A stretch of 64,000 nt of DNA from Saccostrea echinata (Eukaryota): assembly GCF_033153115.1 (NCBI RefSeq), contig NW_026889763.1, forward strand, positions 5,518,001 through 5,582,000, in the 5' to 3' direction. Positions within the stretch are counted from its first letter, which is position 1, and each line of letters begins with the position of its first letter. The notes beneath the pieces were generated by a model, which was given only the letters and a program-made list of their open reading frames with translations, searched no databases and was not told the DNA's origin. Shown piece after piece: positions 11,640-47,949 of the stretch. The translations under genes were made by a program, and so were the position numbers.

Positions 11640-11830
11640 TCTCTCAAACATCTAAACACAGAAACATGTCTACTGTGTCTATAAATATCTAAACAGAGAC
11701 ACAGGTCTACATCTAAAGACAGAAAATCGTCTACTCCCTATCTCTCTCTCCAAATATCTTATCACAGAAACCGTCTCTACTGCCTGTCTACAAATATCTA
11801 AACACAGAAACACGTCTACTGTCTCTACAC
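11640..11830 (-). repeat. Decayed ~39-bp tandem copies of the last codons and stop of the TRIM-like gene
   Basis: (+) aaatatctaaacacagaaacacgtctact, the CDS end, recurs about 4 more times into the 3'UTR. Confidence 0.7.
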
Positions 11831-13473
11831 CCGACCAAGAGAAGATTGTCTTCTGTGTTATAACTCAGACAACATGGTTCATCTATCTTATCTTTCACTG
11901 TAAGTAAAAGCCGAAGAAAATGGCCGTTTTGGTCAATCATTTGAACGGTGTCTGTTTTATAATCGCACACAAGGATGTTCAGTATTGCGTCTGTACAAAG
12001 TCCTCTCGGCCAAAATTCTGAACTGGAGGGGGGTCCTTTATAGGAAAAGCGATGTTTTGCTCTATGATCCGTCACCACCACTGCATTTTTACTATGGTCC
12101 GACACGATCACGTCCCCATTGCAGTTCTCTGTGATGTAGCGAGGGTATTGATAAAGGGCTTGGCCTGCTACACCGAGGGAAAAAGATTGCATTTCACTGC
12201 CAGAGTAATTTAATCGCACTACTTTGGCTTCTAAAGTCGAGTTTTCCTCAGACCCCTGTTTTTTTCTCATCATACCAACTAGAATATCCCCGGTTAGTCT
12301 GGACGCGTAGATACTACAAGGCATCCATGGATCTTTGTTTGGAAGAAGAATATTCTTTTTCTTCAAATCGACAGAAAGTTTACAAATATTTGTCTCTTTG
12401 TCGATGAAAATCAACTCTTCTTCTTTGGTCACAGATTGTATGGCCCATTCATCCGAAATGTTAGACACTTGATGCAAAGTTTTTCCAGAACTGTCCGACA
12501 AAATAATATTTTCATCTCTTACCCAAAACTTGTTGGATGAGACATGAGAAATCTGGTAGCATTCGTTGACGCCTTTGACCTTGATGGATTTCACCTTTTC
12601 AGCTCCATCCATTACTTGGAGATTCGGAACATCGTAAGAAATGTACTCACTTTTCTTGGTTTGCCTTGGTTCATTTCCTGGTACTTCTTCTATATGACCT
12701 AAATATTTGATAACATCTTCCATTGCTATGTTTTCCTCGGTTAGAAGTGGTAGGGGTATGTCCATTATGTGGGGAACATCGTCCTTTTCTGAAATTGGAT
12801 TGTCTCTAAGGTAGAATAGAAATTCTGCTGGTTTGTTATCTGATTGGTCAAACCTTTCAACCATAGTTTTAAGATGGGCTATATAATTGGTGATTTCACA
12901 ATCCTGTTTTTCTAGCTCCGATTCCTGTAATTTTCGGATTCCGTTCAAGCTTCTTTCGTTTTCCTCGATTACATTCTCAATAAGTGCTTTCATTTTCAAA
13001 CCTCTGGATGTCAAGAGAGACAAAATCTGATCAATTTCTTCTTTACGCGATAACAAGTCCGCTTGAATATCTTGCTGCATAGATATGCAACGGGGCAAAA
13101 TTTCCTTTCGGATTTTAGATACCCTTACTTTGCACTTTTCTCTGATCGTGTGACACGCATTTTCCAAGTTCATAAAGCTATGCTTCTTGTGTTTTGAGTC
13201 TTCTCTACATATTTCACAGATAGGAAGTTGACATTGCTGACAGCACAGGCTGTAAACTTGTCCACTATGTATGGAACATTTCTCCTGGATAAAGGTTGCT
13301 CCATATTTTTCTTGTAGGAGCACAATGTCATGAGAAGCACTGGCTGTATTTTTAAGATGATCCCTTTCACAAATTTGACAAAGATCCTTTTTGCAATTTT
13401 TGCAGTAAAATTCAGCATTTTCTTCGCACTTCGAACATTCGACAAAATGCTGTGCAAAAGCCGTTTGTGCCAT
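11788..13473 (-). CDS. RING-less TRIM-like protein: two B-boxes, coiled coil, C-terminal NHL/beta-propeller (family expanded in bivalves); single coding exon
   Basis: ATG at 13473 (MAQTAFAQHFVEC). B-box1 CSKC..FYCKNC..LCQIC..DH, B-box2 CSIH..CCQQC..ICEIC..HKKH, NHL-like YPRYITENCNGDVIVSD and WPRGLCTD..NILVCD. Likely 5'UTR acceptor near 13512. Confidence 0.88.
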   Translation of the reverse strand: MAQTAFAQHFVECSKCEENAEFYCKNCKKDLCQICERDHLKNTASASHDIVLLQEKYGATFIQEKCSIHSGQVYSLCCQQCQLPICEICREDSKHKKHSFMNLENACHTIREKCKVRVSKIRKEILPRCISMQQDIQADLLSRKEEIDQILSLLTSRGLKMKALIENVIEENERSLNGIRKLQESELEKQDCEITNYIAHLKTMVERFDQSDNKPAEFLFYLRDNPISEKDDVPHIMDIPLPLLTEENIAMEDVIKYLGHIEEVPGNEPRQTKKSEYISYDVPNLQVMDGAEKVKSIKVKGVNECYQISHVSSNKFWVRDENIILSDSSGKTLHQVSNISDEWAIQSVTKEEELIFIDKETNICKLSVDLKKKNILLPNKDPWMPCSIYASRLTGDILVGMMRKKQGSEENSTLEAKVVRLNYSGSEMQSFSLGVAGQALYQYPRYITENCNGDVIVSDHSKNAVVVTDHRAKHRFSYKGPPSSSEFWPRGLCTDAILNILVCDYKTDTVQMIDQNGHFLRLLLTVKDKIDEPCCLSYNTEDNLLLVGCRDSRRVSVFRYL

Positions 13474-15231
13474 TTGTTTGATTTTTTCCGTAATAACTTG
13501 CGTTAGACAACTGAATTCCAAACAAAAACGGCACTGGTAAGTTCGAGTAAATTTGCCAATGAATTCGGGTAGTATATATAATTATACCTCAAGATCTCTT
13601 GTGGGCTTTGGAGGTTTAAATCACACTAAACAGCTAAAGGTATGCATAACAAAACTTGAGAAGTATTGATTACTAGCAGACGTAGGTTATCGTTCGAATG
13701 TACCCAATGACAACAAATCTAATGCCTGAAATGTACAAAACAATTAGTTTGAGTAAATTTTACAAGTAGACGTCTAGAAGTATGTTTGGAATACCTTGAT
13801 AAACAATAGAACTGCTTTTTAAAAAATGTGAAATAATATGACCATCATTAAGGCAGTTATCTCTTTGTGTGAACCTAATTAGGTTATAATTAAGGGGTTT
13901 AAATCGCATTGGCGGAATAAATAAATATATCTACGGGTAGCGTTTCAAATTAGTTATCAGTTTATTTACTACAATCCTTTATCAAACGACATCTAAATCT
14001 ATAAAAATAATGCCTGAACTGTACCCAACATTTAATGTTTCAATAAACTTTAAAAACAGAATTTTAGAAGTTTGGAATATCATGATTTAGGAAGCACCTG
14101 CTCTTTTTAAAGCCCCTAACATAAAAGAGTATAATTTATATATTTTTTTTATTTAGCTGACAGCAACACAAGAAAGAAATTTATTTCAACATATACATCT
14201 AAGTTAAATTCAGATCTTCCAAACTGAAGGACTATTAGATATCATGTGTATATCCAGCTCAGTTTTGTTTTAGTTATTCATTGACAAGTACCTGGTAGTA
14301 TTCTTCTCGAAAATACTGTGGTAAAAGTAGACCACAAATTTTAATAAAATCGTCTATACTAGTATATGTATTAAACATACGATGTAGTTATCATTACATG
14401 AAATTTATTATCATTGGTAAAGTTTATCACTAATTATTTGAATTGGGAAAAATTTAAACAATTGAAGACTACATTAATTGTAACACAAGTTACAACTGTG
14501 CGTTAGATTACATTCGAATTCACCACTGTCTGATAATAAATCCATGCAATGTGAAGTGCATAAAAATCATTAAATGATAATCTTACCACAAAATAATTTA
14601 TAAGTGATTTTTAAATACATTTGCTTAAACAGCTAACCACATTGACTTCCTTGATATGAGGAATATAAATACAATGTACGGTCAAACCTTGTTTTAGTGA
14701 ACTTGATGGAATATCTGATGATTCTCGATATGGAAGTTAAAATTCAGAAAGTAAAGGTCGTTGGGACCTCCAATTTACTTTGACACTTTTATGGTATTCG
14801 ACATATTGAAGTTTGCGTCAATTATCAAATTTCAACTGGACCTTGAAAAGTCAAAATAAGGAAAACTACAAAGTATTCTATCCATAACTTTACTGAACAA
14901 TGGATTACTACTTTTTTTTTAAAATCAATTTTATTAATTGTCAGTTTTGAAGGCATCAACATCATGAATTACAAATTTGAAACAAAGGACGGAGAACTAA
15001 GTATATATTAAATATAAAACCAACAACACTAACTGTAAATCAGTGAATCACAGGACTAACACAACTGTCAAATAATTAATATCACATGATACATTATATA
15101 AAAATACTGCATCTCTTATATACATTATAATAATGTACATCAATAAACAGAGATCTAATGATAAAGTAGACCTGATTATGTTCCCTTTCATACAATCTAC
15201 AACAATTTACAAGGACTAAGATGATTCACGA

Positions 15232-34300: not shown

Positions 34301-37300
34301 TCAAGATTCCTGATCGCACTCGAGTTTCCTCTGAACATCATCTGAGGTAGAGATAATCACAAGTTTATCACGTGCACGAGTTGCCAAACTGAGGATGAAT
34401 TTATTCAAATCCGCATGTTCTGGATTGACCTTTGGATCCACCCCGACTATGGTCCCTCGATCAAGTCCACTGAACTCCTTCACTGTATCCACTTCTACTC
34501 CATGATTTGTCTTCTGTGTTAATGGCATCACGTCCGCTGTGATTTCTGGCTTGTCCTGTTTACTTCCAACAAGTACAGCCAAGTCATCAACACTGACTCC
34601 ACTATCTATTATGTTCGAAAGTACTTGGAAGAGTTTTTCTTTCAAATGTTCCTTGTCACATTTAAGGATTTCGACAGATTGTCCTGAACTGTATTCGTGA
34701 CCAAGATGAGGCGAGCTTTCAAGATTCCTAAGTTCTTCCATGTTGTCTGCTAAGGACATTTTTTCCACATTGATGGGACCATTCATGAAATGCTGGGCAT
34801 ATTCAAAGATCTCCTTCGAATTACGGGTTATTTCACTCATCATAAAATTATTTTTTCCAATTATAGATGGAAGTCCTGCATTAAATTTGTGAACTTTCTG
34901 AGTGTAGTCCATGAATACCCAGAAGAAGCCATGTTTCTCAAGATGATTTGAGTTTGTCGTCTGCTGAGATGAATTTTCGTGTGGTTTGGTCAAATGTTCT
35001 GCTGCGCTGTACCAATCTCCATCTCTATCTTTGAAATTCTGTGCCTCATCTACTATGACATTTTTGATATCACTGAAAGTGTCTACACTGGCATTCATGA
35101 AGTCACGACGTGTTGACACGTGGCATATTTTGAAAGACCTGAAATAATGAAATGACTTTAAAACTTAAATCATCATATACTCCAGGTAAAAAAAATGGCT
35201 ATGCATTTAAAATTAACATGCATATATTCACAAATAATGAAAAAATTTGGAAAAAAAAATTCTCAGATACTTTACTCGTGTGTTTTGGTGTTCATGGATA
35301 GACTACATTTTCTTAATAATATATGCTCTCTACTTTTAAGAATTAATTCTGGAATCATACCGGACATATGAGCAAAGGAGTTCATTTTCAGCTAGGTACA
35401 GGATTTCTTTTGTCTGAGACCCTCTTCGTTTTAGCTCTTGAACAAACTGGACGGCTGCTACTGTTTTCCCAGCACCTGGAGGACTGTGCACCCACAATTC
35501 CTTGGTAAACTGTTGAGTAAATAGCAGTTGAAACTGATCACAAGTGAGCATGAAAAAGTATGTATCCTGAGACAAAATATTTTCCACAGTGGTCGTATTT
35601 AGGGTCGTGAAATCCACAGGTTGATAAGCTGCCATTGTAACAATGAGTGAGTCAATAACATTGTCAAATTTCTCCGACGACATATCAAAATGAGAAGGGT
35701 AGAACCGCCTTTCGAAATCGCCTTTAACATCCAGAAAATTTTTAACATTGATGATATGTGTAGTAATACCAAACTTGGAAACACAGCCTCCAAGAGCCAC
35801 CATTTTGTACTTGAGGTGGGCTGCAACATCATGTGTATGTGCCCAAATGGTATTTGATTCTGAGGTAGCAAATGTGATTAAGTGACACCCTTGGGTCTCA
35901 CTGACAATAAACAAATCGCAGGTCACTTTTTGGAGGGACGGCAGTGGAACTGACAGCCCCCAGCAGTTGACAAATAGGGATAGATGTCTCCCCCCAGAGA
36001 ACAGGTCCACAACAGAGCAGACGAGGCTTCTGGTGTCCACACAATCAATGGTGGTCAGGAAGTGGTGAGGCTGAGCAAACTTCATCGATTTCTCTATAAT
36101 GGAATACATATACAAAATGTTGTTAACTTTTAACCATGTAATTATAATGCATAATATTTAATGAGAAGGTACGATGTATATAGAATCTTTTGGTATTTAA
36201 AGAAAGTACTGATACTTGAGAAATACATCATATTAAGGGAAAAAATCTCATTTGGATGCCATACACTGTAGATCACAAAATTTTCCAGACACCTTATTTT
36301 TGCAAGAAAATAATTAGGTATTAATTAATAGCCAGACAAAATTTCACAAATATTTTTTAGATGTTGTGTGTAATTCTTTTTAAGATTAATATACTTCAGA
36401 ATAAAATTTTTACAAGCAGACAGTCTCACAATTAAGCAAAAATGAAGTTCTTGCAAATGAGATTATAAACAGTACATTCATATATTCAATTTATAGAATT
36501 TAGTTCACAGGGCACACACTTTATTTTTCAAATGAATACAATGCAAACACATCTAATAATGCCTTTTGATGCTCAAATACAACTTATTTTATTACCAGAA
36601 AAAAACAGTCCACCCTTTACTAAAAAAAAAAAAAAATTGCTTTTTAGTAGAGGTGGAATATTTTTTTTTCCTAGTATTATTTTTTTTTATGATAAAAACT
36701 TCAGACCCCAGTGCACATACAAACCTGTAAATAATTTGGCCTTTATGCTGTTCATGGTATGTTTCAAGGAGAATACCAGGGGTGCCTGAGGCACAGTAAG
36801 GGGAAGCTTGATGAAGCGTCCATGTAATTCCGGCTTATCTACAAATTCACAAAAAAGACTACTATTAAGGCATCAGTATAATTTTTTTAAGCATTAAAAG
36901 ATCAACTATTTCCATTTTTTTAAAAACATAATATGAAGCAGTCATACACTGTTGAAATCATGAATTCAGTTTTAGGATAATAGAAAAATGTTTCATTTTT
37001 CCAGTAAGACATTCATTTATCAGGGAGAGTAATATGCAACTCATGTGAACATTCTTAGCACTTCTTATCATCTGGCTTAAATTACTAGAACAGTCAGATT
37101 CAGGTCTATATCAACTCCTGATTATGTAATTTTGGTTGTAAAATTTGATGCCAGGAATATGACAATTGACTACAACATTTTTATGAAGTGTAGTTGTCAG
37201 TCAGCATTTCCTCTGAAAGAGTTGAGCATTTGCTTTCTTCCATTGATATACCTCTGAAAGGGTTGAGCATTGCTTTTTTCCATTGATCAAAGGACCAGCA

Positions 37301-40248
37301 GTCTACAGTCTGGGTCTTTGTGTTGATATAGTAACTATCCGGAGTGGCAGAAAATACGCCCCCAGGAAATTTACATACGGACACAACAACAACAACTCGG
37401 GGATTCTGTGGATAAAAGTAATCATGGGTAATTTGTTAACCTTGGAAAGATCTCCCTAAAATATTTCTGAATAAGAAAATTTGAGATTGATGTATTCTAC
37501 AATAACTTTTCAAATACTATTAACTTGATTAACAAATTTAGATATTAATGTGTAGATAATTTGTATCTTTGTAATTTAATCTTAAAAAAACTTTCTGCTA
37601 AGTACCATATGAGCAAAAGATTTAGCAGAAATTCAATTTTGGCAATATCAGCAAGAGTGTTGAAGTTGCTAGATTGAATATTGCTAACAATGCACTCTGC
37701 ACAAGTGGTAATTAAGAATCATTTAAAATTAACTCTTGCTAAAATAAAATATGGATTTTTAAGGAAAAAAGCTAAGCTTGTGTCTCGTAAAAAATAAAAT
37801 CCACTTACATAGTACATGTATGTGAAAACTTAATAAAAAATATTTGAAGTCAGGTATACCATCTTATGAGGCACACTCTGCACTGGGGAGAAATGAATGT
37901 CCCACTGAACCCCTCTCTGGGCACTGAAGGAGGAACTCCCCCATATCATAACATCCATCTTCAACTGGACCAGCTTTACTGAAATAAGAAGACTTCAATC
38001 AATAGTGTTGATACATGTAAATAAATTAAAATAATTAAATTTAATAGAGAGCTGAAAATAAACTTATGTATGAAAGATACAGGTAAAGAAAAAATCTCAT
38101 AAAAATGTCATGTTTTTCTTTCTTAAAGCAAGGTTATTTCTTAATTAGCCATGTATCTTTTCAAATTATTTGGACATATCAATTGACAATCAATAAAATA
38201 GCTAAGACATGTTTTCCACACTGTTTCTCAAAATCACAGTTTCAAGTGACCAACTTGTAATTTTAAAACATTTAACCTCATAGGTGATTTTGGATCCATT
38301 AGGATGTACCTGCAATTTAACATTAAACAAATAATTTACAAATAAAAGATGATGAACATCTTAAAAAGCAAACTTTCAATTTACAATTAAACCTAACAAC
38401 ATCTTCAAATTAATGACATATTTGATGAAAATATTTCTCATAAGAAGTCATACTTTGTCTCAATAAGATATTTTAGACTGGATATTAAGAAACAATTTAG
38501 GTTGTTCCATGTGGTTTACTAATTTTGTATTTATTACTGGTAGACATACTGCTTGGCATCATGCTAAGTTACCTGTCCATCATGTTAAGTTACCTGTCCA
38601 TGATGCTAAGTTATCTGTCCATCATGCTAAGTTACCTGTCCATCATGTTTAGTTACCTGTCCATCATGCTAAGTTACCTGTCCATCATATTAAGTTACCT
38701 GTCCATCATGCTAAGTTATCTGTCCATCATGCTAAGTTACCTGTCCATCATGTTTAGTTACCTGTCCATCATGCTAAGTTACCTGTCCATCATGCTAAGT
38801 TATCTGTCCACCATGTTGTTACCTGTCCATCATGCTAAGTTACCTGTCCATCATGTTAAGTTACCTGTCCATCATGCTAAGTCACCTGTTCTCTCTTGTT
38901 CCTGGTCAGTCATCTCTTCTCCATACACAGCAGCCTGATCATCATCAATGCCAAAATAGATGTGTCCTCCTTCATGATTAGCAAATGCTGTCACATATTT
39001 TGATATCAGTGTCCTAATTTTGTCTGGGATGCCTTTCCCGTCTCTTGAATTTCGACTTGATAGCTGTTTGAATTGAATTTGCTTTGTCTCTTGTTTGAGA
39101 TACTCATTTGTAACTCCATACTGGAAGTTTGTGGGGATTGAAGGGAGGGCAGAGAGTGGTTTTCCTGATTCATCTCTCTGGAGGAGCTTGATCACAGACT
39201 GGTAACTGACCTCATGCGTGGCTGTGTCAGTGGGTAAACGGGAATGATAGTCTATTGTACAGATGTGCTCAGCAGACTTGATAAAGAGATACAGATCGGC
39301 ATCATCGTAATTTCCCACCATATCAAAATAGTTACAAATATCATCTGATGAGATCATCTCAGCGAGTTTTATTTCCATTCCACTCCACCATATATCTAAA
39401 TCTTTGGAGCAGACTCCACTTCTATAATCCTCATTCTTCATGTGGAGAACACCTCCACCACTATTCGCGATTCCACATGCATAGCGTAAAACAATATCAT
39501 TGTCAAATTCATGGATTCCTCTGGAGATGTGGATATTGCAGTGGAGAATACACTCCCCATACCGATGTAGATTGGATGTTCTTAACATGGAAGAAAAAAT
39601 TAAGAGAGCTTTATAAATTCTGGTTCATTAATTTATCTTTGCAAGCCAAGAGCTTCAAATTCATTCCTCTACTCAAGGATAGGAGGAAATTAGGAAATAA
39701 TGATTAGTGCAGATTTGAATCAGCATATATATTATTATAATACATGTATATAAAACCCCTTTCAAGATGTTGCAATGATGCTGTATATTGTACAATATCA
39801 TGAAAGGGGTTTTGAACTTAATATAATTGAAATGATTCTTTTTATTCATATAGAAGAGACAAGTTTGTGCCTATGTCTGAGGTTGAACAATCGAGGGATC
39901 TCTGGCTTATTTACCAGTTTAGTGCACTCTACCAATAGATTGCTAAAAGCCAAAGCTAGTATGATTCCATGCATCTTACACTACCACATTTACATACCAA
40001 CATAACATTTAAAGTATGTTAACTCTTGCTCAACCTTAGTGTTAATATACATGTATTTTTTAGAGATGTTCAAAAAGTTATCATGTACTTCTAAGGAAAC
40101 ATGGTAAACTAAAACTTAAGATTCACATGTTGTTTATGTTTTAACCAGAATTGAACAGGAAAATAATATACAATGTATATACTTACATGTCGTGTGTAGA
40201 AAGTCCAAAATGGTCTGTAGACATTTTTTGTCTTTTAATTTTTTTCAT
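34301..40248 (-). CDS. Full-length Schlafen family protein (AlbA_2 core, SWADL-like linker, SF1 helicase-like domain), SLFN11/13-like architecture, 904 aa
   Basis: Exons 40248-40187, 39580-38886, 37978-37860, 37405-37252, 36838-36725, 36093-35361 and 35138-34301 total 2715 nt in phase. Motifs RYACGIANSGGG, ETKQIQFK, YVTAFANHEGGHIYFGIDD, VNCWGL..VTCDL, VHSPPGAGKT, VIVDEAQNF, DGDWY, FSGLDR, LATRAR. Confidence 0.9.
38556..38889 (-). repeat. 21-bp minisatellite x~16 reiterating the Schlafen exon-2 splice donor
   Basis: Minus-strand unit GACAG|GTAACTTAGCATGATG; the first copy is the real junction ACAG|GTGACT at 38886/38885. Confidence 0.93.
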
Positions 40249-40379
40249 CACTGAATTGCATGCTGAGTATAATTAAACTGTAAATACATTTTAGGACCAA
40301 TTGGATATTTTAAGATTGTGCACAGCGCCAAAAATATAAAACAAATCAAATGTTAAGAAATAATTCGCTGACATGTCTT

Positions 40380-40670
40380 ACTGAATAAATCAAGACAGTA
40401 AATATTTTTTTGTAAACAAACATAGGAAACGGAATAGGACGCAGCCATTTTACCGGATATTCATCGGGAGTGTTTCATGAATTTTTTTTGTTATGGCTAT
40501 GGACGTGGTGTTTGTCAAATGTTTGATAAAATCCTTTATTTTTATAAAACAATTCCTTGAAATATTTGATTTGTAACAAAAATGTTTTTGTGATTGTTAG
40601 TACCAACCATGCGAAAACATTTCCTTAGTAATAATGCTCTCTCCCTAGAGCTCTTTAGTGATGAAGGTAA
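40380..40670. promoter_or_regulatory. Putative bidirectional promoter and non-coding first exons shared by the Schlafen (-) and PAAT (+)
   Basis: Minus-strand donor GTAAGA at 40381 with acceptor at 40278; plus-strand donor AAG|GTAAGA at about 40667; YY1-like GCAGCCATTTT at 40441-40451. Confidence 0.5.
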
Positions 40671-40900
40671 GAAAATACTATCAGATTTTTGTTGACATTG
40701 ACTTTCACTTTCAGTATCTCATGTAAAGAACTTCTTTAAGAAAATAGACACTCATTAAGGATCGGAAAAGATAGAATTTTAAAAACTGAATTTTGTAGAA
40801 CAACCACTTCAGTTTATTCTTTGTAGAGGAGCTAAAATACACCACGCTGCACACACACTGAAAGGTTTGTGGGAGGTTTTTCTGACATTTGCATGCCATA

Positions 40901-41378
40901 CAGGTCCAGTCCAAAAACTATTCCTACTTACGTAGCTATTAATAGCTACCTAGGTATTTAAACCTACCCAAAGTAGCTATTTCTACCTAAAAATTGCATT
41001 ACTTGCATTTTATGGCTAAACGCCCGAATGGCGCAACATGGTGAGTACCAAATTTCTTGATACAATCACACTGATGATGAATACAAGAAAATTGTGGCCA
41101 AAAAATGATTGCTTCATAAATTAACAATTTTGCATAGTAATAAATGCAAAATTGTTAATTTACTACGTAATCATTTTTTGGTCCAAATTTTGTCGTATTC
41201 ATCATCAGTGTGACTGTATCAAAAAATTTGGTACTCACCATGTTGCGCCATTCCGCCGTTTGGCCACAAAATGCAAGTAATGCAAAAAGTAGGTAAAGAT
41301 AGCTACTTTGGGTAGGTTTAAATACCTAGGTAGCTATTAATAGCTACGTAGGTAGAAATAGTCTTTGGACTGGACCTG
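40901..41378. mobile_element. Fully palindromic Tc1/mariner-like MITE (~480 bp)
   Basis: TA|CAGGTCCAGTCCAAA...TTTGGACTGGACCTG; arms pair up to the centre near 41140. Confidence 0.85.
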
Positions 41379-41397
41379 TTATATTTACAACCCTTAA

Positions 41398-42176
41398 AGG
41401 TGCTTGGACACAGATTTTAAGTTAATATTTTCTCAAATTTTCTGTATAATTTCATGACTTATATATTGCTAAAGTATTTCATACTAAAATATAATAAAAT
41501 CTTATTTCATCTCGAAGTTATTAAAACTTCGAATTTCTGGACTCGTTGGATTGACACATCCGTGCACTTTCACATATTTTAATTTTATTCTTAATACTGA
41601 AGAAAAGTGGCAATTTTGTTGTGTATTAATGAAAAATATTAAAACTATAACCCAGAAAATTCAGAGTAGAAATGTTCGAAAGCAAAACCCACTCACAGTA
41701 TTGTAAGTCCCTGCTCAGTGGTGTGTGCAGAGTTTAACAATTGAACACACCCGGTGAATCATAAACATTAACAATAACAGAGCTTGTGCCCTGTTTACAA
41801 AAACAGTTTACGTTTCACGGGTGTGTTCCATTTGTTAAACTCTGTACACATCACAGAGCATGGACTGACAATACTGGTGAGTTGGTTTTGCTTTCGAACA
41901 TTTCTACTCTTAATTTTCTGGAATATAGATGTAATATTTTTCATTAATACATAACAAAATCGCTTCTTTTCTTAAATATTAAGGATAAAGTTAAAATTTG
42001 TGTAAGTGCAAAGATGTGTTAATCAAACGCGTCCCGGAATTCGTAGTTCCAATAATTCCCAGATAAAATAAGTTTTTAATTATATTTTCATGTGAAATGC
42101 TATTGCAATATATAAGTCGTGATATTATACAGAAAATTTGAGAAAATATTAAGTTCAAATCTGTGTCTAAGCACCT
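41398..42176. mobile_element. Fully palindromic Kolobok-like MITE (~780 bp)
   Basis: TTAA|AGGTGCTTGGACACAGATTT...AAATCTGTGTCTAAGCACCT|TTAA. Confidence 0.85.
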
Positions 42177-42494
42177 TTAAAGATAAAAGATGAATAGATG
42201 GAACTAATCTCACCTCTATGCAGTATATGTTTGTGCAGATAATACCTGTAATTATTAAGATTTTTTGTATACTAATGCCCTAATAACCCAGGAGAAGTTA
42301 TGATTGTTTACTTTGTAATGTGAAGCTGATTTTGACAGTCCACTCAATTAACATGATAGAGAGAAAAAAAAACAGAAAAGGTTACATGTCAAACATTTTT
42401 TAAACCGAAGCAGATTTTTAAATATTGAAGTTTTATTTGACTTTCTTATGTAAAACATTCTATTAAGTGATGTGATAACCATTTAATTATACAG

Positions 42495-45400
42495 ATGGCA
42501 GGGATAGACTATTGCACTGTTCTACCATCCTGGGACTTCGACAAAGATCCAGCAACTATTGTAGAGTATTACTTTGGACAAGAGTTTAGGTTTGACATAA
42601 ATTTAATTATTAAGAGATATTTTTAACCATTTAGCTGAATTTTACGGTTTTTGCTCCTTCATAATAAGTGACATTATTTTAATATTGGGAGGTCTTCAGG
42701 AGCCAGTCAGTTAATATCTTTCTTCCTTTTGGTACATTAGAAGCTTTTTGATTCAAGTTTTAGTGCAAGTCATTTCTTTTTTTGCCAATCTGATTAAAAT
42801 CAGTTGTTCTGATATGCTACCGCTTATGAACGTAATTTTAATCAGATTGTTTTTTTCCTAGCTCACAGACAGATGATAATGATGATGATGGAAGTGGACA
42901 ACAACCTTGTCAAGATATCAACCCGAGAAATTTCCTCCAGCTGTCCAGTGTGGAGGGGGAGGAGGTCTGTACCATGACCTTGACCTGTAAACCTCAGTAT
43001 CACATCAGTATCTGTGGTCTCCATGTGTACAGTCAGGCAAGACTGGTGGAAATCTATGATGCAAGTGAGGGGTACCTAAAGACTGTGAGGGGACAGAGAA
43101 TGAGGATGATGGGGGATGATGAAGGGGGAGAGGATTCAGAGGTTGTGTACAAGTGTAGGACATCATTAGACACATGTTATGGACTGACCATCAAGGTGAA
43201 ATTGTTACAAAGTCATTTTGTATTAATGTTTTCTTATCTTAAAATATCCCAATCTAAGTGGCTTTAATTTTCTTGAATTATCACTTTATTACATGTATTT
43301 ATTTAATTAAATAATACATAAATTTAATTAAATTTACACATCAGGAATGTCCTTTGATAAAAATCATCAAATTAATGCATATGTTTTAATGACAGTGTAT
43401 GAAATAATGCTGGTTTTGACTTGAACAATTCTACACAAAAAAGTGGTCTGACATTCTTAGAAATATTACAGTAGATCAGAGTCAACATAACCTAAATTTG
43501 TGAATTTAAAATGAATCAAAATTACTAATGAATTATCCACCTTTGATCAGCATTGAGGAGTCCATTTTACATTCCAGTTTCCACGAGTTCATGGTGTCAA
43601 TTTCTTCAAGATTTTCAAAGTAGTCTTCATTCTTCATCCTGAACCAGAAGAAGATTATGGTGGGAGTGGAGGTCAGTTAGGTCAAATAAACATGTCAAAG
43701 GTCAAGAGTTATGTAACAAGTCTCGGAGACAACATCCCTGAGGGAGCCAGGGGACTGATGCAATCCATGGAGGAATTTCAGCAGGTAAGATTTGTGTGAT
43801 TTATACATGTCATGTACTGTGATATAGAAATATTATTAAGTTCATGTTAAGAATATTTTGAATTTGGTGTGGTAAGAGATTTTTTAACAATGAATGTTAA
43901 ACCTCTAAAAATTGTTTCCTAGATAAATCTATCTAAAAAGTCTAACATTCAAAGTTTTACTGAGCGGTCTGAAAAAAAATTGATGTTGGACCACTGAGTG
44001 GGATATTAGATCTGTCATTGAGATATTGGATCGCTATAACACTTTTTACATCACACTGTAGGTGAGATCAGCTATATCTTACCAATTATTGAAAACATGG
44101 AGGCCATTGCAAGATATGTCAAAATAAAAAGTAAAAGTCATATATATCAAAACATTTATTGACTGTACATGTGTTCCTGAGTAAAATGCATTTTGTCGAC
44201 CCCTTGAACCATCAGCTACAGGCAACACCAATTTGGTTCTTGGGTCCAACAGAATGCATGTTGCCCTTGAACCCAGTCAATAAATGTATAGTGTAAGGAA
44301 TACCATCACATGTAATACACAGTACATGTATGTCAAAGCTGCATAACTTTTCAAAAAGGCTTCACCTTCAACTACATGTATTTACATTTGCTACATTTTT
44401 TTCTCTTAATTTATTTGCAATTTTCTTGAACAGTCACACATGTTAATATACACCAAGAAACTCACACTGTTGTGAAATCACAATTAGGAAGTTGAGATGG
44501 TAGTAAAAATATTACATAGTGCAGTGGTAAATTCAAATCTTGAATGAATTTTTGCTGTTTTTAAACATGTAAATTACAAACAAAGGGATTGCTTTTTTAT
44601 TTAGTCTGCAAATGTTATTGGTGTGTACATTAAACAGAATTGTCAGGTAGGCATATTGTTCATTAAGTGCTAACAAGAAGTGCTAACATGCATCATGAAT
44701 TTCAAATATGCCTACAGGACAAGTTTGTTTGAAGTACACACCAATATCATTCACAAAACTTAAATCATTCCCTAATTATCCAACCAAAATTGCAGTTTAT
44801 TGTTAAATTCCATTATTTGGTACTTTTGATACTTTATCTAGAATCAGAGGGCTTCTATGACTGGAATACATGGTTTTCTTGGCCAGCAACCTTCATCTGC
44901 AGGGTCACCACTAGGAATGATGGGATTGATGTCCATGCTCTCTCAAATGGGAATCAGGTCTAATCAGCTTCCAGGAAAAACAAGCAACAGCCAATCACAT
45001 TCAAACAATTTATCTCAAAAGGGAATCAGGTCCAATCATCTTCCAGAACAAACAAACAACCAATCACATTCAAGCAATTTATCTCAACAGAGAAGGCAAG
45101 ATCAGTCTGGGAATTCAAATGAGAGTGATTCTTCAGATGTTTTCTCTCTACTACATAACATTTGTGATAGAGTTTCTGGAATGCGAGCAGAGGAAAAAAG
45201 AAAAATGGAAGAAGCCGAGGAGACAAAGAGAAGGGAAGCAGAAAAAGCAAAGGAAGGAAAATTGCAATCAGTAGACAGTGCTTCAGAAAATACCACAGAC
45301 GCAAATATTCCAGAGGAAATGAGGTTGGAATTAATGTTACCTTGTTTGTACAGCTTTGGAAAAGTAAAATAATTGTGAAAAACACAAAAATACAATATAG

Positions 45401-45806
45401 AGAGTTTCGGTTCTGCTGTTAGCTAATAAAATTGTTTGAATTCATATCTTATGTGTAATTTAAGATAAGGTAGATTTAGAATACTTTTTACTTGTAAGAA
45501 TTGGTATTTTATTGCAGAGTCATAAAATGAAAGAAATGTGATTTCAGATGTGTTGTTCAAGGACAACAACTCTGATCAAATTCACTCTCATAAACTTTTA
45601 AATTTATCTTTCTTTTCAGAAACAGAGATACAGAAGTTTCTCCTGGATCTTCAAACTCATTGAACACCAAATTAGAGGACCTTGAACAAAGACTTTTAAG
45701 TCATGTAGACTGTAAACTAAGTGAGATGGAAAAACGTATCAACTCAAGACTTGATGAAATCTTAAAATTACTTCAGAGTGGTTGTGTCTCCACTCCAGAA
45801 TCCTGA
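42495..45806 (+). CDS. PAAT: PAAT / C10orf88 homolog (DUF4506), 434 aa
   Basis: Exons 42495-42589, 42862-43195, 43578-43784, 44842-45323 and 45620-45806 total 1305 nt in phase. SQARLVEIY..YLKTVRG, INMSKVKSYVTSLGDNIPEGARGLM and the C-terminal coiled coil LEQRLLSHVDCKLSEMEKRINSRLDEILKLL resemble C10orf88. Confidence 0.8.
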
Positions 45807-45913
45807 CACAGAGTGTTGAGACATGATTTTGTTTTCAGTACAATTTGTTTTTAGTTTAATGGTTGATAAATAATAACCTGGCATTATGTTTCCTGAAGAC
45901 CTAACCTTTTATA

Positions 45914-47590
45914 TTTTTAGCTCACCTCGACGAAGTCGAGATGAGCTTATGCTATACCCCCGGCGTCGGCGTCGGCGTCGGTGTCGGCGTCGGCGTTAGC
46001 GTCGGCGTCCAAGGTTAAAGTTTTAGGAGCAAGTCCCATTCCCAAGTAACTATAAGCCCTACCTGGACCAAACTTGCATGGATGATGCATCTAGGGATGG
46101 ACACTACCACACTTGCTTCGGATGCTGGATCTGACCTAGATTTTCCGGATGAGTGACCAGGTTAAAGTTTTAGGAGCAGGTCCATTCCCAAGTAACTATA
46201 AGCCCTACCTGGACCAAACTTGCATGGATATTGCATCTAGGGATGGACACTACCACACTTGCTTCGGATGCTGGATCTGACCTAGATTTTCCGGATGAGC
46301 GACCAGGTTAAAGTTTTAGGAGCAGGTCCATTCCCAAGTAACTATAAGCCCTACCTGGACCAAACTTGCATGGATGATGCATCTAGGGATGGACACTACC
46401 ACACTTGCTTCGGATGCTGGATCTGACCTAGATTTTCCGGATGAGTGACCAGGTTAAAGTTTAAGGAGCAGGTCCATTCCCAAGTAACTATAAGCCCTAC
46501 CTGGACCAAACTTGCATGAATGATGCATCTAGGGATGGACACTACCACACTTGCTTCAGATGCTGGATCTGACCTAGATTTTCCAGATGAGTGACCAGGT
46601 TAAAGTTTTAGGAGCAGGTCCATTCCCAAGTAACTATAAGCCCTACCTGGACCAAACTTGCATGGATGATGCATCTAGGGATGGACATGGCCACACTTAC
46701 TTCGGATGCTGGATCTGAACTAGATTTTCCGGATGATCGAGTGACCAGGTTAAAGTTTAAGGAGCAGGTCAATTCCCAAGTAACTATAAACCCTACCTTG
46801 ACCAAACTTGCATGGATGATGCATCTAGGGATGGACACTACCACACTTGCTTCGGATGCTGGATCTGACCTAGATTTTCCGGATGAGTGACCAGGTTAAA
46901 GTTTTAGGAGCAGGTCCATTCCCAAGTAACTATAAGCCCTACCCGGACCAAACTTGCATGGATGATGCATCCAGGGATGGACACTACCACACTTGCTTCG
47001 GATGCTGGATCTGACCTAGATTTTCCACATGTGAGACCAGGTTTAGATTTAGGAGTAGTCTCGTTTCCAAGTAACTATAAGCCCTACCTGGACCAAACTT
47101 TCATGGATGATGCATCTAGGGATGTACACTAACCAACCTGCTTCGAATGCTGGATCTGACCTAGATTTTCCACATGAGTGAATTTTAGCCATATTTTAAC
47201 CAAATTAACATGGATGATGTATCTAGGGATGGACACTTCCAGACTTGCCTTGGATTCTGAATCTGATGTACATTTTCCAGATGAGTGACCAGGGTAATTT
47301 TTTGGAGTAGCTATATAATATTATGGCCTGTTATGATTAAACTTGCATAGATGGTGCATCTAAGGATGAAAACTTCCAGACTTGCTTTGGATGTTGGAAG
47401 TGACCAAAATTTTCTTGATTACTAAACAGGTCAAAAGTTTTTTGAGCAGGTCTATAATTAAATCAAACTTGCATGGCCATTGATCTTGGGATGTACCCTA
47501 ACTAGAAAAAAAATATGATGTGAAATTTGCCTTACATGTAGATAACATTCGTCGAGGTGAGCTTCGTAATCTTTGATTACCTATGTTTTT
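45914..47590 (+). mobile_element. HINE (Helentron-associated, CvA/pearl-like) with a 146-bp internal tandem array
   Basis: 5' tttttagctcacctcgacgaagtcgagatgagc hairpin, (GGCGTC)n, about 10 x 146-bp units at 46011-47500 decaying 3', and a 3' tcgtcgaggtgagc plus gtaatc..gattac hairpin, inserted in a T run. Confidence 0.88.
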
Positions 47591-47949
47591 AATATATTTT
47601 CTTTCCTTTTCCTACAGTTTTTATAATCATGCATATGAATGGATTTGAACAATTATATCCAAATGTTTTTATGATGGTTTATATCAATTCAGATAAAGAT
47701 TTCTCCAGGTTTGTGATATATAGATATATATGTATTTCCCTTGATCTTTATTTTTAAAGGAGTGAACTATTTTCACCTTAACCATCCATCTTTGTTAAAC
47801 AAATGTGTCAAACAGTTTGATTTTATACTTTTACTAACATTTTCTTTTAGTATGAATTGTTCTTTGAAATAACAAAATAAAAAAAAAATCTAGCATATTA
47901 AAACATGCAAAATAAAACTGCAGTACTGTTACAAGATTTGATCTGTTTT

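Follow-up and report, generated by a model that had tools for sequence, protein, structure and literature searches.

A conserved long Schlafen with an E-Q-K catalytic motif in the oyster Saccostrea echinata

We analysed a stretch of 64,000 nucleotides (nt) from the oyster Saccostrea echinata (assembly GCF_033153115.1, contig NW_026889763.1, positions 5,518,001 to 5,582,000; hereafter the window) and found that a seven-exon gene on its minus strand encodes a protein of 904 amino acids (aa), in which a two-lobed Schlafen (SLFN) core is followed by a linker domain and a superfamily 1 (SF1) helicase. By both architecture and descent this protein is a group III, or long, Schlafen. By its defining residues it falls outside the cleavage-proficient E-E-K group (SLFN11/12/13/14), its catalytic motif reading E185-x4-Q190-x-K192 where the cutters have E-x4-E-x-K. 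The protein is likely to be either a nuclease of different chemistry or an RNA binder that does not cut. The gene is present in a single copy, changes slowly and has been inherited vertically, and a nuclease-linker-helicase design that predates the vertebrates and reaches back to early animals is well supported.

Gene structure, architecture and descent

The starting material was three long minus-strand frames (38872-39624, 35336-36157 and 34301-35164), with family matches respectively to SLFN_AlbA_2, to SLFN_GTPase-like with a P-loop and, weakly, to an SF1 helicase. A preliminary description of this DNA had spoken of an intact 904-aa reading frame; the length and the absence of internal stops hold (2715 nt, 904 aa plus the stop), and the frame is the product of splicing seven exons (Table 1) rather than a single genomic frame. 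All six introns are bounded by GT..AG, and the predicted product is a 100% match to RefSeq XP_061177897.1 from the same species (P0018), named 'schlafen family member 8-like'. The splice evidence consists of contigs from four coded runs of two studies. The runs themselves are only guessed to be RNA, but their contigs remove the introns precisely and thus show that the gene is spliced, and the spliced joints in turn suggest that it is expressed. One contig of 2159 nt (record 1 of run X1) contains all six joints and extends from 40404 in the 5' untranslated region (UTR) to 35018 (aa 666), thereby passing Walker B (aa 656-657), so that nuclease and helicase are joined in one transcript contig and the AlbA and helicase exons do not belong to separate transcripts. 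Contigs of run X3 supply the remainder of exon 7 up to the stop codon; among the contigs of the four runs none reaches from ATG to stop on its own. A small extra exon guessed near 38310 gave no open model and is skipped by the contigs.

The two lobes of the N-terminal core carry ANSGGG and AFANHEGG, and Pfam recovers SLFN_AlbA_2 (PF04326) at aa 185-324 (E 1.3e-12). The linker domain is present (SLFN_GTPase-like, PF21026, aa 420-501, E 6.5e-11, 42.5 bits against a cut-off of 27), with its SWADL-type motif diverged to CWGLSV. SLFN-g3_helicase is matched at aa 586-711 with 24.0 bits, right at the cut-off, and the C-terminal SF1 helicase is complete (Q568, GKT at 590-592, DE at 656-657, R880), UvrD and Upf1 folds being among its structural matches. 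A profile built from 14 molluscan sequences matched 14 PDB sequences, all of them vertebrate SLFNs (SLFN5, SLFN11 and SLFN14, E 3e-85 to 7e-61; best SLFN5 at 3.1e-85, then SLFN11 at 3.1e-83), and the match runs collinearly between the first lobe and the final LATRAR motif (aa 877-882). An AlphaFold2 (AF2) model from 75 rows, vertebrates included, reached a predicted local distance difference test (pLDDT) of 89.4 and a predicted template modelling score (pTM) of 0.88; a fold from 14 molluscan rows only was poor (pLDDT 56.7) and was set aside. The best structural matches of the model are SLFN11 (Foldseek E 1.1e-49), SLFN14 and SLFN5, and a VIA structural alignment to SLFN11 (9erd) gave Z 29.1 with a root-mean-square deviation (rmsd) of 4.4 over 750 aligned residues (model aa 25-891). 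The whole-chain arrangement is closer to the SLFN11 S753D monomer (template modelling score 0.69, rmsd 4.4 over 750 residues) than to the apo dimer, for which the rmsd is about 21; this, as one predicted conformation, carries little weight.

Word-index searches returned 33 near-full-length matches from bivalves and gastropods. The 33 molluscan rows used below are these matches minus P0001, P0009 and P0014 plus P0018, P0019 and P0020, six being assigned by similarity and some being near duplicates. Vertebrate SLFNs were missed by these searches and recovered only by a full HMMER search, which found 896 representatives at E <=0.001, the best 150 of which were listed. Full-length relatives among 20 that were looked up come from Ptychodera (2), Saccoglossus (2), Glandiceps, Patiria, Amphiura, Actinia, Actinostola, Myxine and five jawed vertebrates, and the Pfam core, linker and P-loop families co-occur in the Actinia, Saccoglossus, Ptychodera and Myxine proteins. 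All trees are unrooted and without a prokaryotic outgroup. In the full-length tree (57 of 75 rows after removal of 18 near duplicates or fragments; support from the Shimodaira-Hasegawa-like approximate likelihood ratio test, SH-aLRT, only) 20 molluscan rows form one clade, which tracks the bivalve and gastropod groups and has Ptychodera P0070 as its sister (support 100). A second clade of 23 rows includes the five named jawed vertebrates, with hagfish as sister. The core-only tree (118 rows) and the helicase-only tree (29 rows, support 98/99) each pair the molluscs with P0070 as well, and the core-helicase fusion was therefore inherited as one piece. Judged from these sequences, the oyster and vertebrate SLFNs share descent and did not arise by independent fusion. 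The group III architecture and SLFN11/13 kinship put forward in the preliminary description are thus borne out by Pfam, profile, fold and trees, and a pre-vertebrate origin stands on firmer ground than was claimed there, given the relatives in anemones, hemichordates, echinoderms and hagfish.

Searches of the S. echinata genome (G000) with the exon 6 protein, with PF21026 and with the second part of exon 2 each returned at least two matches, namely this locus and one on contig C25. The latter cannot be taken for a paralogue, as the 50 kb flanking it align collinearly with the window at 80-99.6%; with a protein 98.6% identical, it is likely the other, unpurged haplotype. The long Schlafen is thus effectively single-copy. 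Between the two genome copies (window versus L011) 26 of 838 bases differ in the last exon (34301-35138) and only 6 across the other six exons, with 20 synonymous and 11 non-synonymous codon differences overall; the differences of run X3 too are concentrated in the last exon. Bivalve-gastropod identity is 61% in the core N-lobe, 50% in the C-lobe, 26% in the linker, and 62% and 45% in the two helicase lobes. A search with PF04326 found at least six matches, four of them (L005-L008; C14 6.77-6.86 Mb and C64 7.55-7.60 Mb) other than the two long-Schlafen copies. These four retain an intact E-x4-E-x-K, have no linker or helicase match, and look like SLFNL1-type genes.

The E-Q-K site, the predicted core dimer and the helicase half

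Cleavage by SLFN11 requires E209, E214 and K216 (PMC9482658; papers are cited here as far as their available text goes), and its two glutamates carry two Mn ions (PMC11615386). The E, Q and K of the oyster motif are each present in 33/33 molluscan rows, whereas position 190 is E or D in all 23 vertebrate-clade rows. A second difference lies at P137, which aligns with R133 of SLFN14 and is proline in every molluscan row as against R or K in 23/23 rows of the vertebrate clade. P306 and G307 occupy the positions of the zinc-finger cysteines C321/C322, where the 33 molluscan rows have no cysteine and 21 of 23 vertebrate-clade rows have one at each; the alignment is unreliable at the H285/C287 columns.

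The pattern extends well beyond molluscs. From 154 proteins examined, 108 covering at least 80% of the core were combined with 12 molluscan rows. Among the 91 cores outside the vertebrate clade (mean identity 30%) E185 is kept in 87, K192 in 90, Q190 in 78 and the full E-Q-K in 73, with E-E-K in 7, although the share of Q is inflated by a search seeded with a Q-type profile. R or K in the R133 column is found in 0/78 rows with Q as against 31/35 rows with E or D, and at least six changes between Q and E are needed on the unrooted core tree. Q-type cores occur with different C-termini, either a helicase or, in proteins of about 650 aa, a helical region, which fits an effector module. The helical type makes up a large family of about 600-700 aa with a two-lobed Q-type core (P0064, P0066, P0147, P0158, P0272 and relatives), two members of which were named TPR by JGI (Joint Genome Institute) and one of which is from the soft coral Dendronephthya. 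Q-type cores with other C-termini (P0063 of Mytilus californianus, 1348 aa; P0133; P0123) are sister to the molluscan helicase clade, P0063 having a P-loop-like stretch seen by eye and unconfirmed by Pfam. P0071 (2337 aa) consists of tandem repeats of a Q-type C-lobe fragment in 24 matched stretches and could have arisen as an artefact of assembly or annotation.

Modelled as two copies, aa 20-345 scored 0.42 compared with 0.17 for the best control, with contact agreement of at least 87% and pLDDT of at least 81. This score passes the dimer mark applied here, which was reached by 21/30 solved homodimers and 0/23 monomers, by 7/16 animal homodimers, and by 1/7 eukaryotic homodimers lacking an older solved relative. 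The modelled contacts of E90 with T138, T140 and A141 match interface II of SLFN11, in which E78/T138/S139 correspond to oyster E90/T140/A141, and 21 of 42 residues of the predicted interface are invariant in molluscs compared with 48 of 284 in the rest of the core. In the helicase half Q568, K591 and T592 are invariant in the 33 molluscan rows, D656 and R880 are kept in 32 and E657 in 31, with S for G in the Walker A HSPPGAGKT in five. SLFN11 needs K652 for binding single-stranded DNA (ssDNA; PMC9482658; PMC10730379), and the equivalent position holds R637 in 30/33 rows; K662 stands at the position of SLFN11 R674 in 32/33, and K846 at that of R855.

Proposed function and competing readings

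The reading we prefer, to which we give about an even chance, is that the protein is a dimeric, metal-dependent RNA endonuclease that uses a remodelled E-Q-K site and is gated by its helicase. Two cores would pair head-to-tail as in SLFN11, as the model predicts, and form an RNA cleft in which E185, Q190 and K192 might hold a metal ion and the scissile phosphate in the manner of the PD-QxK sites of MspJI and Mrr, and the joint loss of the E211-R133 charge pair may preserve the net charge of the site. The helicase half would bind ATP and single-stranded nucleic acid and gate the core, the substrate might be a structured RNA such as tRNA, and the conserved task would probably lie in RNA surveillance or stress, not in an antiviral arms race. 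An active E-QhK site is plausible by analogy because the SLFN site overlays the D-(D/E)hK sites of restriction enzymes (PMC12215978) and MspJI, whose site is PD-QxK, cuts DNA in vitro (PMC12707154; see also PMC11037411).

Several points weigh against cleavage. The E211Q variant of SLFN14, which equals the change at oyster Q190, abolishes cleavage with little reduction in stability or tRNA binding, R133A is likewise inactive (PMC12215978), and SLFNs without one of E209, E214 and K216 are reported to be nuclease-deficient (PMC9482658), so that the published residue rule would make the oyster protein catalytically dead. Conservation is lower at Q190 than at E185 and K192, with A, V, C, R or S in its place in 6/91 cores, and the Q count carries the search bias noted above. 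The co-variation of Q with the R133 column was not significant on independent pairs, of which two changed in the same direction, none in the opposite one and three not at all (p 0.5). No residue compensating for Q190 was identified when sought; D83, considered as a trans-acting compensation specific to the Q-type, lies near the partner's E185 and D234 in the model but is D in 17/29 vertebrate-clade rows and was rejected. The ssDNA groove remains basic at some contact positions and is changed at others (T653 to D638, R656 to N641, R856 to E847), and the dimer model may pass through memory of solved SLFN dimers.

The strongest alternative, one we hold to be a substantial possibility well short of even, is a conserved pseudo-nuclease, in which the dimer clamps tRNA-like RNA without cutting, as in SLFN5 and mouse SLFN2, and the helicase half provides a sensing or chromatin function. 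It draws on the same SLFN14 mutants (PMC12215978), of which E211Q remains stable with near-normal tRNA binding: both inactivating positions are altered in the oyster protein. The predicted dimer interface is its most conserved surface, and single copy with slow change would suit a housekeeping scaffold. Yet a dead site should drift, and the triad persists in most of the divergent cores in several domain contexts; in SLFN5, which reads ESTHVEFVM, the lysine is lost and the triad is not kept.

An inducible antiviral effector like SLFN11, cutting tRNA or rRNA to halt viral translation, is compatible with an active site, and we consider it unlikely. The architecture is that of SLFN11/13/14, the basic residue at the K652 position is retained, prokaryotic Schlafens are antiviral tRNases (PMC13056530), and unnamed 'Schlafen proteins' are among the top Vibrio-upregulated genes of mussel (PMC7772429). 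The available text of the mussel paper, however, leaves the type of Schlafen unspecified, and the oyster genome also has the E-type SLFNL1-like loci. The canonical catalytic residues are changed, and the absence of gene expansion and the bivalve-gastropod identity of the N-lobes of nuclease and helicase are unlike the fast-evolving mammalian cluster. No expression data linking the gene to viral challenge were found, the supplements of PMC7772429, PMC7064767 and PMC7488030 carrying no Schlafen label; as the tables of PMC7064767 seem to contain few gene names (viperin once), they give no evidence on induction. A conserved cellular job is favoured over an antiviral one because the gene is single-copy, changes slowly and stands head-to-head with a PAAT-like neighbour. 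The tRNA/rRNA-cleaving antiviral role suggested in the preliminary description is thus not upheld. Finally, an artefact, contamination, lateral transfer from a vertebrate or an unrelated AlbA_2-NTPase fusion, which the identity of merely 23% to bat SLFN11 and the borderline helicase score might suggest, is refuted by six spliced introns in contigs from two studies, a gene tree that tracks bivalves and gastropods, the concordance of the core-only and helicase-only trees, and an Atlas score of 0.99 to chordate SLFN clusters as against 0.88 to bacterial NERD helicases.

Returning to the E-Q-K endonuclease, we propose, with confidence somewhat below even, a large, hitherto undescribed invertebrate class of two-lobed Schlafens lacking the zinc finger that would cut RNA through E-x4-Q-x-K and be the family's equivalent of the PD-QxK restriction nucleases. 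The nuclease-linker-helicase design would go back to the cnidarian-bilaterian ancestor, and the oyster gene would be the conserved single-copy representative of a lineage shared with acorn worms. In their phylogenomic study, Mordier et al. 2025 (PMC12492265) report, with a 40% identity filter, no SLFN matches beyond jawed vertebrates and date the clustered SLFN genes to these; the oyster protein shares 23% identity with the bat SLFN11. Given the full-length relatives seen in anemones, molluscs, hemichordates, echinoderms and hagfish, the origin of the SLFN11 design moves back to early animals. Such proteins are already annotated in RefSeq as Schlafen-like; neither invertebrate full-length Schlafens nor the E-Q-K site were found described in the mostly non-subscription literature searched, although the deposited AlbA_2 trees and alignments of PMC12680541 may include them, and the available parts of PMC12680541 and PMC13056530 do not mention molluscs. 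Whether both glutamates are indispensable, as the published rule holds, can be tested cleanly on the E-Q-K site. Cleavage by such a site would widen the known chemistry of Schlafens and turn many invertebrate proteins into candidate RNases. Lack of cleavage would mean that a long Schlafen unable to cut has persisted from the bilaterian ancestor onwards, and would thereby indicate a function independent of cleavage, of relevance to SLFN5 and the helicase half of SLFN11.

Genomic surroundings and comparison with known systems

The Schlafen gene is accompanied by three tandem arrays, and the region between its 5' contig end and that of the divergent PAAT-like gene is likely a promoter common to both, the contigs not giving the true starts. 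Further out lie a B-box frame, which we take to resemble a bivalve TRIM-like gene, and a repeat element (Table 1).

Table 1. Features of the window (positions in the window; codons numbered on the 904-aa product)
Feature	Position	Strand	Remarks
Exon 1	40187..40404	-	5' UTR (contig to 40404), ATG at 40248, coding 40248-40187, aa 1-20; basic stretch, by eye a possible nuclear signal
Exon 2	38886..39580	-	aa 21-252, core N-lobe and start of C-lobe; D83 (39396), E90 (39375), P137 (39234), E185 (39090), Q190 (39075), K192 (39069), D234 (38943)
Exon 3	37860..37978	-	aa 253-292, C-lobe
Exon 4	37252..37405	-	aa 293-343, end of C-lobe; P306-G307 at SLFN11 zinc-finger C321/C322
Exon 5	36725..36838	-	aa 344-381, connector to linker domain
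Exon 6	35361..36093	-	aa 382-625, linker (GTPase-like) domain, CWGLSV for SWAVDL; Q-motif Q568, Walker A HSPPGAGKT
Exon 7, coding part	34301..35138	-	aa 626-904, R637 (SLFN11 K652 position), Walker B DEAQNF, helicase C-lobe, LATRAR at aa 877-882, stop
Tandem array, 21 bp x16	38557-38889		beginning of intron 2
Tandem array, 27 bp x9	34056-34297		directly beyond the Schlafen stop codon
Tandem array, 23 bp	31559-32242		downstream of the Schlafen gene
Intergenic gap	40405..40533	.	129 bp between 5' contig ends of Schlafen and PAAT-like genes
PAAT-like gene	40534-45915	+	PF14958, E 1.5e-16; spliced in X1-X3; head-to-head with Schlafen gene
Repeat element	45900-47700		very high contig depth in 4/4 runs
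B-box frame	11788-13581	-	597-aa stop-to-stop frame, two B-box zinc fingers

Among the closest known systems is human SLFN11 (7ZEL, 9ERD; PMC9482658, PMC11615386), with which the oyster protein shares the core-linker-SF1 helicase order, the length of about 900 aa, the fold, the Q-motif, Walker A and B, the equivalents of E209 and K216, the basic residue at K652 and the predicted interface II. It differs from SLFN11 in the Q at E214, the P at R135 (SLFN14 R133), the P/G at C321/C322, CWGLSV for SWAVDL and several changed ssDNA contacts, and in being encoded by a single-copy, slowly evolving gene, at about 20-23% identity. With human SLFN14 (9NYY, 9JR9; PMC12215978) it has in common the fold, the E-x4-x-h-K site geometry by alignment and a tandem acidic pair (D233/D234), but it naturally carries the E211Q-type change and the R133 loss that inactivate SLFN14, and its Walker A is intact where SLFN14, with FPGVRKT, lacks one. 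The nuclease-deficient group III member SLFN5 (7PPJ), its best profile match, likewise combines the full architecture with a non-canonical site; SLFN5 has both glutamates and no lysine, whereas in the oyster protein the lysine is retained and Q replaces the second glutamate. The acid...Q-x-K signature is reminiscent of the PD-QxK nucleases MspJI and Mrr (PMC12707154), active in MspJI, although these belong to another protein family with a DNA substrate and the likeness is one of active sites alone. The single-lobe Schlafens, namely prokaryotic pSlfn, SLFNL1 and C. elegans PUCH, share the AlbA_2 domain, and no linker or helicase was shown for any of them in this analysis; unlike the oyster long Schlafen, pSlfn keep E-x4-(E/D)-x-K (PMC13056530) and the four SLFNL1-like oyster loci keep E-x4-E-x-K.

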